From positions 32,001-96,000 of the forward strand of contig CAVSHO010000007.1 of the NCBI GenBank assembly GCA_963727825.1: a stretch of 64,000 nt of DNA, given 5' to 3'. Shown here one piece after another: positions 8,488 through 64,000 of the stretch (position 1 is the first letter of the stretch; each line of letters opens with the position of its first letter). Below the pieces are notes generated by a model. It saw nothing but the letters and a program-made list of their open reading frames with translations, did not search any database and was not told where the DNA came from. This DNA is from Ignavibacteriota bacterium (GTDB taxonomy: Bacteria > Bacteroidota > Ignavibacteria > UBA10030). Made by a program: the position numbers and the translations under genes.

Positions 8488-9494
8488 ATGGAAAAAGCAC
8501 GTATTGGTATAGTTGGACTTGGGTCAATTGCTCAGACAATTCATCTCCCGATCCTCAATAAGTTTCCAGATGTCGAAATTGTAGCGGTTTGCGATCTCGA
8601 CCGGGCAAAGGCGCAATTTGTAGCAGATAAATTCAAAGTGCGACGTTACTATAACAACTTCGAGAAAATGCTGGCGATTGAACGAGATCTCGATGGAATA
8701 GATATTTGCACTCCGACGATATTGCATAAAGACATGGCGATTGCGGCATTGGCGGAAAAGAATAATGTTCTCATAGAAAAACCATTAGCACGAACCGCAA
8801 TAGAAGCAGAAGAAATTGCCGCTGCAGCAAAGAAATACCATCATACATTGATGGTTGGAATGAACAATCGCTTCCGCCCGGACGCTATGATTCTTAAAAG
8901 TTTTATAGAAGATAAAGCACTTGGTAAACTCTTTTATGCCAAGGCAGGATGGTTCAAAAAATTGAATGCGGAGAGTGCATGGCTAACTAAGAAAACACAA
9001 TCCGGCGGCGCGTAGTACTCGACCTTGGCATCGTCATGCTTGATCTTGCTTTCTGGATGATGGGATTTCCAGAGGTTCGAGAAGTTTCAGCAACAAATTA
9101 TTCGCATCATACAAAGGATGTAGAGGATTCATCGGTAGCGTTCCTCAAAATGAAAAACGGCTCCACATTAACTATTGAAGCAAGTTGGTCGTTTGAGTCC
9201 ACCTCAGACTTTTTCTACTGCGATTGTTTTGGTACGGATGGAAGCGGTTCACTCAATCCATTTCGAATCGTCAAACGTATGCACGATAATCTTGTCAATT
9301 TCGCACCTGCTTCTATTGAAACGCCGCAGAGTCTTTACCGTAAATCATACGAGAACGAGCTTAAACATTGGATTGGCTCATTGCGCGGATTGCACTCGGT
9401 TATTTCTAACGGCGATGAAGCTGTGCAACGAATGAAGATTATAGATTTAATTTACAAATCTGCTAAACGCGGCAAAGCGGTAGCAATAAAGTAG
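8488..9494 (+). CDS. Gfo/Idh/MocA oxidoreductase (frameshift near 9010)
   Basis: GIVGLG and EKP motifs; SGGA/GG junction continues into the 9036..9494 frame. Confidence 0.85.
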
Positions 9495-59740: not shown

Positions 59741-61558
59741 ACGTCTTATAAAAGTCTTTATAGCGCCTTAGTTACTCTCGTTATTACGTTATTTGCATGC
59801 GCTTATGGCGATAATAATATTCTAACTAATCCAGGATTTGAAAGAGGAAAGAACGGCTGGTTCGATCGGACTTGTGCAATTGAACCTGTATCATCACCGG
59901 TTCACAGTGGTACTGGTGCTATGAAGGTCGTTAATAGACTAATGAATTGGCAGGGAATAAAACAATCGGTGTTCGGTAAATTGGTACAAGGGAAAATCTA
60001 TAAAGTTTCGGGGTGGGTAAGACTCGACAATGCAAAAAGCGATACGGTCGCTATATCTTTCGAACAGCAAGATGACAGCGGTACAAAGTATATTGGTGTA
60101 GCGCGGGCTGCCGCTTCGGATACTAACTGGACTTTGTTATCCGGCGAATTTACTTTAAAAGTTACAGGAACATTAGCAGTACTGGATGTGTACTTTGAAG
60201 GCCCTGTGTCAGGTGTTAACTTTTATGTTGATGATGCGAGTGTATTCGGTCCCGAGGTTGATGCTCCGAAGGTAATACCTGCTGATCCCAACGGAAAAGG
60301 TATAATAGATGTCAACACACGATATCAAAAAATTGAAGGCTTCGGTGCTTCAGGAGCTTGGCATACAAAAGAATTAGTAAATCATAAGAAGAAGGACGAG
60401 CTGTATAATTTGCTCTTCAAAGAACTTGGCCTCGATATATTCCGTATAGGCAATTATTACGATATAGATTCAGTTTCCTTCAATGAGACGATGGAAATAG
60501 CCAGATGCGGTGAATCCGCTCTAAAGAGAAATTTAAAGATTATGATATCATCGTGGTCGCCTCCGCCTTACATGAAAAGCAACGGAAAAATAATCGGTGG
60601 AACTCTGAAAAAGAAAAACAGAAAATTTGTCTATGATGAATTTGCGGAATGGTGGACTAAAAGCGTAATTGCCTGTACAAAAGCGGGTGTAAAGATAGAT
60701 TATATAAATATACAGAATGAGACTGACTATGAAGCTCCATGGAATTCATGTGTTTTTTCTCCTTCAGAAAATGTTGATACAAACATTGCCGCCTATAACA
60801 AAGCTTTCGAAGCAGTCTGGCAAAAAATGAACGCTTCAATGGGTTCGAACATGCCGAAAATGCTTGCTCCGGAAACATCCAGTTTAGGCAATGCTAAAAA
60901 GTACATAGAATGTTTAAGCAACCCATCCCATATCTATGCTTATGCTACACATCTCTACGATTGCAGTGGATGCGGTTCCGCTCCCGACAGGTTTATTCCA
61001 AGTATGGGCAGCTTCAATAATTTTGTCGTGCAGCATATCAACAAGCCGATATTTCAGACAGAGTTCGAAGACGGACCCAGCCTATGGACAAATGCAATCA
61101 GCGCAGCATTAGTGATACATAATGCTTTGACCGTGGAAAAAGTATCCGCTTATTTATACTGGGATTTATTCTGGGGTCCGGGAACAGCTCTGGTCAGCAT
61201 GAACGATTCAACCTCATATACCATTAAACCGGCATATTATACTTTCAAGCAATATTCAGCGTTTATAGATGCTGATTGGCAGCGCGTGGAAGCATCGACC
61301 GACAACACCGGTCTGAGGATTTCTGCATACATCAGTCCGGACAATAAAAAACTGACAGCAGTTATTATAAATACTACTGATAGCACGAATATTTCTTTTA
61401 ATCTATCTGTCAATAATTTCATTATTTCCAAAGGTGAAATTTACAGATCGAGCCAGAATGAAAACTGCGCCCTGATCGGTAGTTATAACAGGAAAACTCC
61501 GTTGGAAATACCTGCAAATTCCGTTACTACCTTATCGTTAACTTACAATAAGAAGTAG
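59741..61558 (+). CDS. Secreted CBM4/22 plus GH30 (xylanase-like) glycoside hydrolase
   Basis: Frame is open upstream of 59921 (signal peptide, 'NILTNPGFE'); CBM 'FYVDD'; GH30 motifs QKIEGFGASG, SSWSPP, IQNE, QTEF, AYLYW. Confidence 0.8.
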   Translation, partial: TSYKSLYSALVTLVITLFACAYGDNNILTNPGFERGKNGWFDRTCAIEPVSSPVHSGTGAMKVVNRLMNWQGIKQSVFGKLVQGKIYKVSGWVRLDNAKSDTVAISFEQQDDSGTKYIGVARAAASDTNWTLLSGEFTLKVTGTLAVLDVYFEGPVSGVNFYVDDASVFGPEVDAPKVIPADPNGKGIIDVNTRYQKIEGFGASGAWHTKELVNHKKKDELYNLLFKELGLDIFRIGNYYDIDSVSFNETMEIARCGESALKRNLKIMISSWSPPPYMKSNGKIIGGTLKKKNRKFVYDEFAEWWTKSVIACTKAGVKIDYINIQNETDYEAPWNSCVFSPSENVDTNIAAYNKAFEAVWQKMNASMGSNMPKMLAPETSSLGNAKKYIECLSNPSHIYAYATHLYDCSGCGSAPDRFIPSMGSFNNFVVQHINKPIFQTEFEDGPSLWTNAISAALVIHNALTVEKVSAYLYWDLFWGPGTALVSMNDSTSYTIKPAYYTFKQYSAFIDADWQRVEASTDNTGLRISAYISPDNKKLTAVIINTTDSTNISFNLSVNNFIISKGEIYRSSQNENCALIGSYNRKTPLEIPANSVTTLSLTYNKK

Positions 61559-61854
61559 ATAGTTAGTTAATGACCGTGAATAAAGTTCAGCAAAAGCAGT
61601 GATTACTTGCCATAACTTTACCGTTGCGATGCGAGACATTCATTCGTATATTTTAATATATGTCGTAAAAAAATATTACCTCGTAGAAGTTGGCGTTGAA
61701 AGTTCTCAGTATTAGAAGTTTTGTCTCTCTCGGCGATTTTATTCTGGTCGATATGAAAAGCTGTTCAATAAGGTGATCAGTGAAGTAATCAGTAAACACT
61801 AATCACTTGTGACACGATAGAAAAATAAGTGGCAAAAATAAAAGTATTTAACCT

Positions 61855-61970
61855 GGAGAGCTGGCAGAACGGTCCGTCGTCATCGCTGTGCGATGACGGA
61901 CGAGATCTCGTTCCGCTAAAAGCGGAACGGACTATTGCATCCCGACATAAAGTCGGGACGGACGTAAGCC
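61855..61970 (+). pseudogene. Interrupted partial copy of tRNA-Ser(TGA)
   Basis: GGAGAGCTGGCAGAACGG [59-nt insert] CTATTGCA [hairpin] CGTAAGCC are colinear pieces of the intact tRNA at 61996. Confidence 0.85.
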
Positions 61971-61995
61971 AATAAGTTGGAAAGAAATAGTATTT

Positions 61996-62078
61996 GGAGA
62001 GCTGGCAGAACGGCTATTGCACCAGTCTTGAAAACTGGCGGGCGTAAGCCCTTGGGGGTTCGAATCCCTCGCTCTCCG
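61996..62078 (+). tRNA. tRNA-Ser(TGA)
   Basis: GGAGAGC...GCTCTCC-G; CCAGT-CTTGAAA-ACTGG anticodon arm; long variable arm. Confidence 0.95.
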
Positions 62079-62144
62079 CAATTATAATTATCAAATTGCT
62101 TTTCGGGGTTCTTTTTACTTAATTAAATCAAACAAATTCAGCTC

Positions 62145-62227
62145 GGAGAGATGGCCGAGTGGTCCGTTCCGATCTGTGATCGGAACGAGATCTCGTCCCG
62201 ACAAAGTCGGGACGGACTGAAGGCGCA
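62145..62227 (+). pseudogene. Interrupted 5' fragment of tRNA-Ser(GCT)
   Basis: AATTCAGCTC-GGAGAGATGGCCGAGTGG [54-nt insert] CTGAAGGCGCA; same leader as the intact copy. Confidence 0.85.
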
Positions 62228-62230
62228 AAG

Positions 62231-62470
62231 ATGAAAGTTTTTGTTTATATCTTGTTCTCTGAAAAGTTTGGAAAGACTTATGTTGGTCAGACTTCTGATA
62301 TTCAGAAAAGAATTACCATGCATAATGCTGGGCGAGTTAAGTCTACAAAAAGATATGCTCCTTGGAAGTTAATTCATTCAGAAGAATTTGATTCAAGGGG
62401 TGAAGCTATGGCAAAGGAAGAATGGTATAAATCTTCTTCTGGAAGGAAAAGTATACAAAAGTTTATTTAA
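62231..62470 (+). CDS. Small GIY-YIG nuclease (UPF0213/SLX1-like) no. 1
   Basis: FVYIL...TYVGQTSDIQKR...HNAG..KSTK.Y.PW...EAMAKE...KS..GR. Confidence 0.93.
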   Translation: MKVFVYILFSEKFGKTYVGQTSDIQKRITMHNAGRVKSTKRYAPWKLIHSEEFDSRGEAMAKEEWYKSSSGRKSIQKFI

Positions 62471-62502
62471 TTAATTTTTGAAATTGTAACATAATTCAGC
62501 TC

Positions 62503-62591
62503 GGAGAGATGGCCGAGTGGCTGAAGGCACAGGTTTGCTAAACCTGCATAGTGGGTAACTGCTATCGAGGGTTCGAATCCCTCTCTCTCCG
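62503..62591 (+). tRNA. tRNA-Ser(GCT)
   Basis: GGAGAGA...TCTCTCC-G; CAGGT-TTGCTAA-ACCTG anticodon arm; long variable arm. Confidence 0.95.
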
Positions 62592-62599
62592 CTTGTGAG

Positions 62600-62923
62600 A
62601 TGAGTTATTTCGTTTATCTGCTTTGGTCGATTCGATCAAAACGCACATATGTCGGACAAACGGATGATATCGATAATCGCCTAAAACGACATAATGCAGG
62701 ATATATTCGATCCACTAAAGCATATCGTCCTTGGGTATTGGTCCATATAGAATTGTATTCAACTCGTTCAGAAGCGATGAAGAGAGAAATATGGTTGAAG
62801 AGCCCGACAGGTAGGAAATCGATAGTTAAGATTATTGGAAAATGGCAAGAGAAAGGTTTGTCCGTTCCGTTGTCAGAGACAACGGAACGAGATCGCGATC
62901 CCGCAGGAGCGGGATCGGACTAA
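62600..62923 (+). CDS. Small GIY-YIG nuclease no. 2
   Basis: YFVYLL...TYVGQTDDIDNRLKRHNAG..RSTKAYRPW...EAMKRE..LKS..GR. Confidence 0.93.
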   Translation: MSYFVYLLWSIRSKRTYVGQTDDIDNRLKRHNAGYIRSTKAYRPWVLVHIELYSTRSEAMKREIWLKSPTGRKSIVKIIGKWQEKGLSVPLSETTERDRDPAGAGSD

Positions 62924-62973
62924 ACCTGCATAGTGGGTAACTGCTATCGAGGGTTCGAATCCCTCTCTCTCCG
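62854..62973 (+). pseudogene. 3' part of tRNA-Ser(GCT) interrupted in the anticodon
   Basis: AGGTTTG [59-nt insert] CTAAACCTGCATAG...CTCTCTCCG, identical to the intact tRNA. Confidence 0.85.
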
Positions 62974-62981
62974 CTGGTAAG

Positions 62982-63059
62982 ATGAGTTATTTTGTATATC
63001 TGCTAAGGTCGATACGATCAAAGCAAACATATGTTGGACTAAACCTGCATAGTGGGTAA
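62982..63059 (+). pseudogene. Truncated third GIY-YIG gene fused to a tRNA 3' fragment
   Basis: MSYFVYLLRSIRSKQTYVG, then runs into CTAAACCTG...TAA. Confidence 0.8.
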
Positions 63060-63102
63060 CTGCTATCGAGGGTTCTCCCGGCAAGTCGGGACTCTCTCTC
63101 TG
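63039..63102 (+). pseudogene. Third 3' tRNA-Ser(GCT) fragment, T-loop replaced by a hairpin
   Basis: CTAAACCTG...GAGGGTTC [TCCCGGCAAGTCGGGA] CTCTCTCTCTG. Confidence 0.8.
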
Positions 63103-63163
63103 CAAAACTTTATTCCATGAAAATATGGAATATAGTTTTACTGGCAAGTCCTGAAAGATGGAT

Positions 63164-63194
63164 AAGCGTCTCATATCTTCGGGACGCTTTTTTT
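63164..63194 (+). terminator. Rho-independent terminator after the tRNA/GIY-YIG array
   Basis: AAGCGTCTC-loop-GGGACGCTT followed by T-run. Confidence 0.6.
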
Positions 63195-63216
63195 GTATTA
63201 GAACAGGTTATCGGAA

Positions 63217-64000
63217 ATGGGAAATCAAATTCGCGTTCGTTTTGCACCAAGCCCTACAGGATATTTACACGTAGGCGGGTTACGCACAGCATTATATAAT
63301 TATCTATTTGCAAAACACTTTGGCGGTAAATTCATTCTTCGCATTGAAGATACTGATCAATCGCGCAAAGTTGAAGGTGCGGTTGAAAATTTGATCGAAA
63401 CTCTGAAATGGTCTGGAATTGAATATGATGAAGGTCCTGACCGTGATGGTGGTCGTGGTCCGTATGTGCAATCTCAACGTTTAGAATTGTACCGCAAGTA
63501 TGCACAAGAACTCATCAGCAAGGATAAAGCGTATCATTGTTTCTGTACATCTGAACGATTGCAGGAAGTTCGTAAAAAACAATTGGCCGCAAAACTTTCT
63601 CCTTCGTACGACCGCCATTGCCGAAATGTATCTCGAGAAGAAGCGGAACGCCGAGTTGCAGCAGGTGAGCAAAATGTCATCCGCATGAAAATACCACTCG
63701 AAGGTGAATTATCATTTGATGATGTTATTCGCGGCAAAGTAACCATTTCTCATAAGATGATAGACGATCAAGTGCTTATCAAGTCAGATGGATTCCCGAC
63801 ATATCACCTTGCAGTTGTTGTCGATGATCATTTAATGGGAATTACACACGTCATTCGCGGCGAAGAGTGGCTGTCGAGTGTCCCGAAACATATTCTGATA
63901 TATAACTATTTCGGATGGGAATTGCCGGTGCTTGCGCATCTTCCATTGTTATTGAATCCTGATAAATCTAAACTCAGCAAGCGTCAAGGAGATGTAGCGG
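63217..64000 (+). CDS. gltX: Glutamate--tRNA ligase (partial, runs off window; not in ORF track)
   Basis: [32 protein letters not shown]...LRIEDTD...THVIRGEEW...KLSKR. Confidence 0.97.

Follow-up and report, generated by a model that had tools for sequence, protein, structure and literature searches.

Nuclease genes nested among tRNA-Ser genes of an Ignavibacteriota bacterium: a probable array of small homing-type cassettes

Why should genes for very small nucleases lie interleaved with intact and broken copies of tRNA genes on a bacterial chromosome? The question is raised by a 64,000-nucleotide (nt) stretch of DNA, called here the window, from an Ignavibacteriota bacterium (assembly GCA_963727825.1, positions 32,001 to 96,000 of the 325-kb contig CAVSHO010000007.1). 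Positions 61855-63103 of the window contain two intact tRNA-Ser genes, partial copies of each of them, and two intact and one truncated open reading frames (ORFs) of the GIY-YIG nuclease family, here numbered GIY-YIG 1 to 3, with all parts on the + strand (Table 1). We estimate at roughly 65% the probability that this locus is a nested, tandem array in which a small homing-type selfish cassette that resides on tRNA genes is present three times, twice intact and once truncated. We infer the mobility of the cassette from comparison: an exact empty site, a patchy distribution, linkage to tRNA genes throughout the genome and the phylum, clades specific for given tRNAs, purifying selection, decayed copies and tandem amplification all support it.

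The order of parts listed in the original prediction, which had been made from the letters of the DNA, was confirmed base for base by ARAGORN, a repeat finder and the ORFs. An exact 28-nt repeat (62135-62162 and 62493-62520) comprises the leader AATTCAGCTC and bases 1-18 of tRNA-Ser(GCT), and the 3' part of the same tRNA is found in three copies, starting at 62535, 62917 and 63036. A repeat of 123 nt (62538-62660 versus 62920-63042, 90% identity) spans the tRNA 3' part and runs into the start of the ORF behind it. The repeats also bore out that one cassette carries a duplicated 5' tRNA end and the others duplicated 3' ends. We propose that a cassette consists of a stand-alone GIY-YIG ORF and a duplicate of part of its target tRNA gene: insertion would split the resident tRNA, the duplicate would restore an intact one, and the displaced piece would stay beside the ORF. 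Cassettes of the 3' type (GIY-YIG 2 and 3) would sit behind the tRNA and leave a displaced 3' part; the 5' type (GIY-YIG 1) would sit ahead of it and leave a displaced 5' part. Since the cassette would bring a replacement for the part of the gene that it splits, the tRNA would never be lost. In the case of GIY-YIG 1 the D-loop is split behind base 18, and 10 nt of leader are part of the duplicate in this cassette. Residues 1-21 of GIY-YIG 2 have a counterpart in the 57-nt GIY-YIG 3 remnant, at 81% identity. Set beside the GIY-YIG 2 unit, the remnant appears to derive from a full unit through a deletion, with GGAC shared by its two ends, that removed the hairpin and most of the ORF.

The inserted units measure ~360-380 nt, and the ORF is their sole content. 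We found no recombinase gene in the inserted DNA, which carries only GIY-YIG ORFs. The tyrosine integrase domain (PF00589) has eight matches in the genome and none on the 325-kb contig, in agreement with the predicted absence of an integrase; serine recombinases were not searched. A permissive Rfam search of 61500-63400 for a ribozyme core, of a group I intron or other, returned only the two tRNAs above threshold.

The empty form of the locus is present in close relatives. We searched the DNA of 40 relatives and read their loci; 15 of them are congeners, and those of the 15 that are not mentioned here were masked or at contig ends (genomes carry G numbers, G000 being the genome of the window; C and L numbers denote contigs and loci). 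In G002, G013, G015, G009 and G005 the locus is empty and consists of tRNA-Ser(TGA), a spacer of ~65 nt, tRNA-Ser(GCT), the terminator and gltX; with G004, which is empty for the GCT gene, there are at least six empty congeners. Units of the GIY-YIG 2 type occupy the locus in at least four others: G010 (one unit), G006 (at least two in tandem), G008 and G007. Filled and empty alleles, which the original prediction proposed to compare, were therefore both found among congeners at the same locus. The order in G010 is intact tRNA, 9 nt, an ORF ending in CAGGTTTG, a double hairpin, a 3' part beginning with CTAAACC and the native flank, which places the split between the first and second anticodon bases. 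Since the native spacer and flank of the empty alleles adjoin the outermost fragments in the window (62135-62162 and 63039-63103), these are the two parts of the split original tRNA-Ser(GCT), with ~880 nt inserted between them. The locus is a presence/absence polymorphism at an exact site in a conserved gene, with the junction known to the base, and both the replacement gene end carried by the element and the displaced native end are seen here.

The filled alleles are scattered over the congeners. Judged by identity at the start of gltX, the closest relative, G013 (90%), is empty; the filled genomes are G006 (81%), G007 (78%), G010 (73%) and G008 (71%), and the empty G005 (83%) and G002 (82%) lie in between, so that several gains or losses are needed. 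GIY-YIG 1 was not found at the orthologous locus in any of the 40 relatives, and among them its ORF had only a weak DNA match of 79 nt (76% identity), at a contig end of G038. In the region of the partial tRNA-Ser(TGA), G006 has the intact tRNA right after the same upstream flank, and G005 has two partial copies lacking the double hairpin.

Table 1. Features of the tRNA-Ser locus (window positions) and, in the last rows, tRNA fragments at integrase islands elsewhere in the genome (contig positions).
Feature	Position	Strand	Comment
Partial tRNA-Ser(TGA), 5' two-thirds, interrupted	61855..61970	+	without ORF
Bases 1-18 of partial tRNA-Ser(TGA)	61855-61872	+	
Double hairpin, 59 nt, in partial tRNA-Ser(TGA)	61873-61931	+	at G^CT of the D-loop; followed by CTATTGCA
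Hairpin TCCCGAC-ATAAA-GTCGGGA in partial tRNA-Ser(TGA)	61940-61958	+	exactly in place of the anticodon arm; variable-arm bases follow
Intact tRNA-Ser(TGA)	61996..62079	+	ARAGORN; Rfam tRNA, 54.1 bits; native spacer follows
Leader (10 nt) and bases 1-18 of tRNA-Ser(GCT)	62135..62162	+	displaced 5' end of the original gene; continuous with the native spacer of empty alleles
Double hairpin, 54 nt, TCCG..CGGA	62163..62216	+	at GG^CT of the D-loop; DNA fold -21.5 kcal/mol, z = -6.2
Bases 19-29 of tRNA-Ser(GCT), CTGAAGGCGCA	62217..62227	+	between the hairpin and ORF 1; read from the sequence
GIY-YIG 1, 79 aa, 5'-type cassette	62231..62470	+	PF01541, E 4.3e-17; ends 32 nt ahead of the intact tRNA
Leader and intact tRNA-Ser(GCT)	62493-62502 and 62503-62592	+	ARAGORN; Rfam tRNA, 60.7 bits
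GIY-YIG 2, 107 aa, 3'-type cassette	62600..62923	+	Pfam E 2.9e-17; ATG 8 nt past the tRNA
Double hairpin, 59 nt	62861..62919	+	in the displaced copy, between anticodon bases 1 and 2 (TTG^CTAA); DNA fold z = -8.9
Bases 36-90 of tRNA-Ser(GCT) (3' part)	62920..62974	+	100% identity to the intact gene (blastn-short)
Truncated GIY-YIG 3, 19 codons	62982..63038	+	starts 8 nt past the tRNA 3' part
Native 3' part of the original tRNA-Ser(GCT)	63039..63103	+	bases 36-72, hairpin, 3' acceptor strand with one mismatch; continuous with the downstream flank of empty alleles
Hairpin, 16 nt, TCCCGGCAAGTCGGGA	63076-63091	+	substitutes for T-loop GAATCC in the native 3' part
Intrinsic-terminator-like hairpin and T-run of the native tRNA operon	63164..63196	+	kept in empty alleles; upstream of gltX
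gltX	start 63217		PF00749, E 1.8e-98
Island tRNA fragment	G000 C11:136006-136060		contrast to the 0.4-kb nuclease cassettes
Island tRNA fragment	G000 C11:156478-156532		as above
Island tRNA fragment	G000 C3:21236-21291		as above

Linkage to tRNA genes extends over the whole genome. The genome has 45 tRNAs and 13 GIY-YIG matches, 11 of which are of the UPF0213 type. Each of the 11 has an intact same-strand tRNA at a distance of 403 nt or less, and five start 4-10 nt behind it, against a background of 1.3% of the genome at 500 nt or less from a tRNA. The tRNAs concerned are Ser-GCT (three copies), Leu-CAG (two, in tandem), and Gln-TTG, Pro-CGG, Pro-GGG, Leu-CAA, Asp-GTC and Ser-GGA (one each). 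Every UPF0213-type copy in this genome is bordered by a hairpin-interrupted partial copy of the local tRNA. Three of the 11 are broken: stop codons interrupt those at Pro-CGG and Pro-GGG, and GIY-YIG 3 is truncated. Plugged tRNA copies are also found without an ORF, for Ala-CGC, Asn-GTT, Met, Arg-TCT, Arg-CCT and Leu-TAG. Behind tRNA-Arg(CCT) (G000 C14:90200-90480) there are two tandem units of ~205 nt, each ending in a tRNA 3' fragment with a hairpin in place of the T-arm and neither with a recognisable ORF. At the Pro-GGG and Asp-GTC cassette loci (G000 C1:3425-3868 and C11:152616-153101) a tyrosine integrase homologue lies ~0.3-0.6 kb upstream of the tRNA.

In the phylum as a whole, 301 genomes were sampled: 203 contain a match (E <= 1e-5; ~950 matches overall) and 98 contain none. 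Among the 29 best loci of other genomes, a tRNA on the same strand is no more than 436 nt away in 27, and no more than 9 nt away in 11 of these; the tRNA is upstream in 24 of the 27 and downstream in three. The remaining two loci have no tRNA, and their starts are 52 and 83 nt away from the end of a contig. These two and a G006 duplicate were left out of the fragment analysis, and all of the 26 loci analyzed hold a fragment of the local tRNA of at least 13 nt outside the intact gene, mostly as consecutive segments split by inserts of 15-60 nt. The predicted association of small GIY-YIG genes with hairpin-bearing tRNA fragments consequently holds both in this genome and across the phylum. Outside it, a Pelagibacteraceae single-cell assembly (L073:1123-1460) has a UPF0213-type ATG 4 nt past a tRNA-Glu(ttc), with no tRNA fragment seen in the ~190 nt behind the ORF.

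The cassettes also occur in tandem arrays. In G002, at the position orthologous to the single broken Pro-CGG cassette of this genome, we found at least 14 tandem units of 299 nt with 99% identity, continuing to the contig end (L069, G002:C2:364300-369156). Each unit contains a piece of tRNA-Pro(CGG), whose anticodon arm is replaced by TGGCGCC-TCT-GGCGCCA, followed by a GIY-YIG ORF with its ATG 1 nt past the tRNA end and its stop codon in the D-arm of the next unit. Other arrays have five units (G078) or two (Leu-CAG in this genome).

The encoded proteins are small and well conserved at their active site. GIY-YIG 1 and 2 score 62.6 and 63.2 bits with PF01541, against a cut-off of 22.6. In 31 tRNA-linked sequences Y6, G19, R27, H31, N32 and E63 are invariant, and Y17 is present in at least 90%; these positions include the catalytic Tyr, Tyr, Arg and His and the metal-binding Glu of the family, and GIY-YIG 1 keeps the catalytic residues. 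The nearest solved relatives by sequence are the UPF0213 structures 1ywl (E 6e-6) and 1zg2 (E 1e-5), followed by SLX1 (E 0.1). An AlphaFold model of GIY-YIG 2, built from the 31 tRNA-linked sequences, has a mean pLDDT of 88.8 (~97 for residues 1-87, ~55 for the tail of residues 88-107), and a fold search with this model returned 1zg2 (E 1.9e-5), Slx1 (E 9e-4) and I-TevI (E 0.3). The tail is encoded by the tRNA-derived AGGTTTG (62854-62860) and the double hairpin, and the other copies have 79-89 aa. With only residues 1-87 predicted to fold and a disordered tail of 20 residues, the protein would have no DNA-binding extension. Both the structure model and the sequence matches agree with the original prediction of stand-alone UPF0213/SLX1 domains lacking a DNA-binding tail, and the closest solved relatives of the proteins are of the UPF0213/Slx1 type rather than I-TevI or UvrC. 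In an NCBIfam search with seven of the proteins, no family reached its cut-off; a group I intron endonuclease family gave weak matches (18-25 bits versus 56).

The ORF is under purifying selection: the ratio of nonsynonymous to synonymous substitution rates (dN/dS) is 0.16 between this genome and G006 and 0.10 between G010 and G006, other pairs being saturated. We built a maximum-likelihood tree of 37 proteins: this genome contributed seven tRNA-linked ones and, as outgroup, two Ssn-like paralogues, and 28 came from other genomes. Mapped on the tree, the identity of the neighbouring tRNA changes nine times (the minimum is eight; the mean of 200 shuffles is 21.1, and none is as low). Clades supported at 99% (Leu), 96% (Ser other than GCT), 96% (Ala and Asp), 95% (Asp) and 88% (Ser-GCT) were recovered, and the paralogues of this genome are closer to proteins linked to the same tRNA in other families than to each other. 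Cassettes of the 5' and 3' types mix within clades, so that what they have in common is the tRNA gene itself rather than one of its flanks. Since clustering can arise from relatedness alone, target specificity fits the tree rather than being proven by it. The two outgroup paralogues, of 113 aa (G000 C7:171145-171530) and 92 aa (C9:22990-23330), are longer, and the nearest tRNA to either is more than 20 kb away. The 113-aa protein gene is flanked by palindromes of the GTCATTCCCGCGTACGCGGGAATC type; these resemble the NTS repeats of Ssn nucleases, and both paralogues appear to be of the Ssn family. Another palindrome, TCCCGCGTACGCGGGA, has seven copies in the genome, six of them with TCCCGAC-AAA/TTT-GTCGGGA nearby.

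How could such a cassette spread? The nuclease may nick or cut its cognate tRNA gene or the surroundings, and repair by recombination with a cassette-bearing copy would then proceed through the tRNA homology. The route could be homing, or a single unit in circular form could integrate in the Campbell manner. Recombination of such a circle, or of incoming DNA, through the 55 nt of shared tRNA sequence would produce exactly the order seen here, and its reversal would regenerate the empty site perfectly. The break-making role of the nuclease is suggested by analogy with SegB in the tRNA cluster of phage T4 (PMC2330249). Arrays might be built by repeated events or by unequal crossing-over. The ORF would be read from the tRNA promoter, and 3' processing of the tRNA would leave an almost leaderless mRNA.

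On transcription, the original prediction of a terminator at ~63165 has its counterpart in a terminator-like site at 63164-63189. We saw no promoter-like site between tRNA and ORF and a single terminator after the array; with ATGs 1-10 nt past the tRNA and no promoter-like site in between, expression from the tRNA promoter is the simplest possibility. RNA-library contigs cover 61854-61988, 62152-62349 and 62358-62515 (run X13) and 61854-62013 (run X16), and as such libraries may contain DNA they are no proof of transcription. The proposed co-transcription therefore agrees with the layout of the locus, that is, with ORFs near tRNAs, one terminator and no internal promoter-like site, but is only hinted at by these contigs. 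One RNA-library contig joins 62134 to 62493, which corresponds to a form without GIY-YIG 1 and may come from another species.

Misassembly, named beforehand as an outcome that would undo the interpretation, is unlikely, since the junctions recur in contigs from other public runs and in congeners assembled independently, which show the same layout. The recurring stretches are 62305-62532 (zero differences), 62958-63297 and 61854-62013. All public read data used were contigs, with at most 24% of the sampled words in any one run, and uncovered stretches carry no meaning.

The hairpins that plug the displaced tRNA copies are of several kinds. Double hairpins have the form GTC-hairpin-(A/C)GATC(T/G)-hairpin-GAC, in a frame with two-fold symmetry. 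Among 13 distinct ones from this genome and its congeners, 12 have two stems of 7-12 bp and the 13th has one according to a simple stem finder, and the set as a whole draws on many different stems. When folded as single-stranded DNA, the three of the window have z values of -6.2, -6.2 and -8.9 relative to shuffles. Two otherwise near-identical tandem units in G006 differ completely in one hairpin, a case of replacement rather than drift. Wherever the uninterrupted sequence is known, the target of the double hairpin is G^CT, without target duplication, and it was found in five contexts: the anticodon loop and the D-loop of Ser-GCT, the D-loop of Ser-TGA, the anticodon loop of Asn-GTT, and an unrelated repeat, GCCTAACGGA..CTAAG^CTGCGGC. 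In the present genome this repeat is free of hairpins, but at least 12 of its copies, counted over G010, G006 and G009, contain a double hairpin. Its core, GCCTAACGGA..CTAAGCTGCGGC..AACAAGTTCATGCTG, belongs to a repeat of ~110 nt that precedes many genes, with at least 17 core matches (G000, including C11:1-27200 and C1:186200; loci L034-L038). Other modules are 22-nt mini-hairpin pairs in T-loops at TTC^G and single hairpins that exactly replace the anticodon arm of Ser-TGA, Gln, Ala and Pro. Hairpins of the TCCCG..CGGGA type number 89 in the genome, 15 within 500 nt of a tRNA (~13 times the expectation) and 74 farther away.

The original prediction had described a selfish nuclease together with hairpin tags at tRNA genes. 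The cassette part is upheld by the comparison with relatives, but the hairpins are not private tags of the cassette, as TCCCG hairpins mostly occur at a distance from tRNAs and double hairpins have their own G^CT target. We propose that the GC-rich hairpins are independent mobile palindromes that survive only in the dispensable displaced copy; they were seen only there, as they would be lethal in a working tRNA. By shortening or breaking the direct repeat they may slow the loss of the cassette by recombination. As candidate movers of the hairpins we considered Y1 transposases and rejected them: hairpins of the TCCCG or GTCCG type are missing from the 450 nt around each of the nine Y1_Tnp homologues encoded in the genome, although these might act in trans. 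The published SRM pattern of the Ssn repeats has eight matches in the genome, compared with 5-10 in shuffles; around the 12 GIY-YIG loci checked, no match came closer than 700 nt.

Several observations weigh against a homing-type cassette. Filled and empty alleles have the same intact tRNA-Ser(GCT) sequence, so that the protection of the carrier allele expected of classical homing is missing. The orthologous cassettes of congeners are diverged (dS 0.65 or saturated), and vertical residence with repeated precise loss would yield the same patchiness and the same tree. In other phyla only two of five loci from a species-genome collection, the Pelagibacteraceae one among these two, have a tRNA within 1.2 kb, and the many hairpins far from tRNAs show that the modules are not specific to the cassette. 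A rival view is that the ORF is a vertically inherited host gene, a housekeeping nuclease tied to tRNA loci or transcripts, with the fragments as recombination debris that may act in mRNA processing or stability. Purifying selection and ORFs flush with tRNA 3' ends would be expected of such a gene, clades that match tRNA identity across families are also expected from vertical descent, and several displaced copies keep a tRNA-like shape, a hairpin of similar size exactly replacing the anticodon arm. Most displaced copies, however, lack one acceptor strand and so cannot fold as a tRNA; the closest congeners are empty, nearly a third of the phylum genomes (98 of 301) have no match, three of 11 copies are broken, and arrays reach 14 near-identical units, all of which makes a host gene very improbable in our view. 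Least credible of all, to the point of being nearly negligible, is that ordinary integrase-type islands left these remnants behind, or that repeated tRNA sequence was misassembled. Integration often takes place at tRNA genes and leaves partial copies there, according to the parts of the island literature consulted (PMC9897764), several related arrays stand at contig ends, and this genome does contain three true islands; but the units here are far smaller and hold nothing except the ORF, no tyrosine integrase is on the contig, duplications are of both the 5' and the 3' kind, and the junctions recur in separate assemblies. The three island signatures are copies of the tRNA 5' part of 55-56 nt, 6-7.5 kb from the intact Arg-CCG, Arg-ACG and Pro-TGG genes, with a tyrosine integrase adjoining.

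A further explanation, which we consider doubtful though clearly ahead of the two just discussed, would make nuclease and hairpins one integrated two-part system acting on single-stranded DNA. The UPF0213 nuclease would, like Ssn, bind hairpins (the modules or arms of the tRNA gene) and cut a few bases away; the hairpins would be working ends or portable recognition sites, and the tRNA duplication would be the footprint of staggered nicks. The model is Ssn itself, described in the sections of PMC11893778 available to us as a single-domain GIY-YIG protein of 94 aa that binds its hairpin only as single-stranded DNA and cuts a few nt upstream, with repeats flanking its gene. A hairpin module does stand at the split point of every cassette examined, always with ~7-13 nt of tRNA-derived sequence between module and ORF; the defined G^CT target in five independent contexts without duplication, the wholly different stems in near-identical G006 units and the lack of these hairpin types at all nine Y1 transposase loci also speak for such a system. 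Against it, the cassette proteins fall outside the Ssn-like paralogues of this genome (99% support; similarity E 1e-6 to 1e-5), the SRM pattern is neither enriched nor near the GIY-YIG genes, 74 of the 89 TCCCG hairpins are far from tRNAs, the genome encodes nine Y1 transposase homologues that could move palindromes, and plugged pseudo-tRNA copies exist without an ORF. In a specific and similarly speculative form, to which we would give fairly long odds, each UPF0213 clade would read the stem-loops of its own tRNA gene as single-stranded DNA and nick the loop on each strand, leading to duplicative insertion with the tRNA gene as target-site duplication; the palindromic modules, including the G^CT double hairpin, would be non-autonomous partners of the same enzymes. 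If so, this would be a mobile system without transposase or integrase, composed of an 80-aa protein and hairpins of 20-60 nt.

Elsewhere in the window, a stretch of ~95 nt around CGAGATCTCG (8640-8740, C7:40640-40740) is identical to one at G000 C8:190900-191000; it could be a duplicated gene segment or reflect redundancy of the bin (estimated contamination 6.55%).

If the homing-type cassette is real, it would provide a biological role for stand-alone UPF0213/Slx1-like GIY-YIG proteins, and it would be a very small and very common bacterial mobile element, such genes being present in two thirds of the sampled genomes of the phylum. It would be a parasite of essential tRNA genes that never inactivates them. 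It would account for tRNA pseudo-copies and hairpin-filled fragments that confuse annotation, and it may explain contig breaks of metagenome bins at tRNA loci. Clades tuned to given tRNA genes or hairpins could supply compact site- or structure-specific nucleases, as has been proposed for Ssn.

In the literature that we consulted in part (full-text search, the 2006 survey of the GIY-YIG superfamily, PMC1564403, and the Ssn paper), we did not find tRNA-linked UPF0213 genes or hairpin-plugged tRNA copies described, nor a characterised stand-alone UPF0213/Slx1-like GIY-YIG member. Integrase islands at tRNA genes (PMC9897764, as far as its text was available) are alike in that a copy borne by the element restores the tRNA and a partial direct repeat stands at the far end. 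Unlike them, the cassette has no integrase, measures ~0.4 kb rather than kilobases, splits the gene in loops anywhere along it and has 5' versions. The Ssn nucleases, as portrayed in the passages seen of Chenal et al. 2025 (PMC11893778), share the single GIY-YIG domain of ~90 aa and the borders of GC-rich hairpin repeats that are multi-copy in the genome, and their authors compare the repeat-gene-repeat layout to an insertion sequence. The Ssn family is defined by cd10448; the cassette proteins are UPF0213/Slx1-like and stand apart from the Ssn-like paralogues of this genome, and the SRM pattern does not match the cassette flanks. The word tRNA is absent from the main text of that paper, whose supplementary lists of homologues and repeats might include tRNA-linked members.

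Another parallel is SegB, a GIY-YIG homing nuclease encoded in the tRNA cluster of phage T4 and inherited preferentially with its tRNA region (PMC2330249), which drives segmental amplification of tRNA loci (PMC13096335); the openings of the two abstracts mention no tRNA fragments or hairpin plugs. SegB is of the phage I-TevI/Seg type with a DNA-binding part, in contrast to the cassette, whose model I-TevI matches weakly. The mobile ORFs (mORFs) of fungal mitochondria, reported for Allomyces atp6 and for Glomus atp6, atp9, cox2 and nad3 (PMC3630166, consulted in part), bring in a replacement for a gene end and push the native end aside. They too are free-standing endonuclease ORFs outside introns (GIY-YIG in the atp9 case), inserted in an essential gene together with a replacement end, and there too the original end is left further downstream and the hybrid gene works. 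The cassette differs in its host, a bacterial chromosomal tRNA, in its nuclease, a minimal UPF0213/Slx1-type domain of 80 aa, and in having 5' and 3' versions, a displaced copy plugged by palindromes, and tandem units. On our best reading, the tRNA-Ser cassettes would be a variant of this free-standing homing-endonuclease or mobile-ORF kind.

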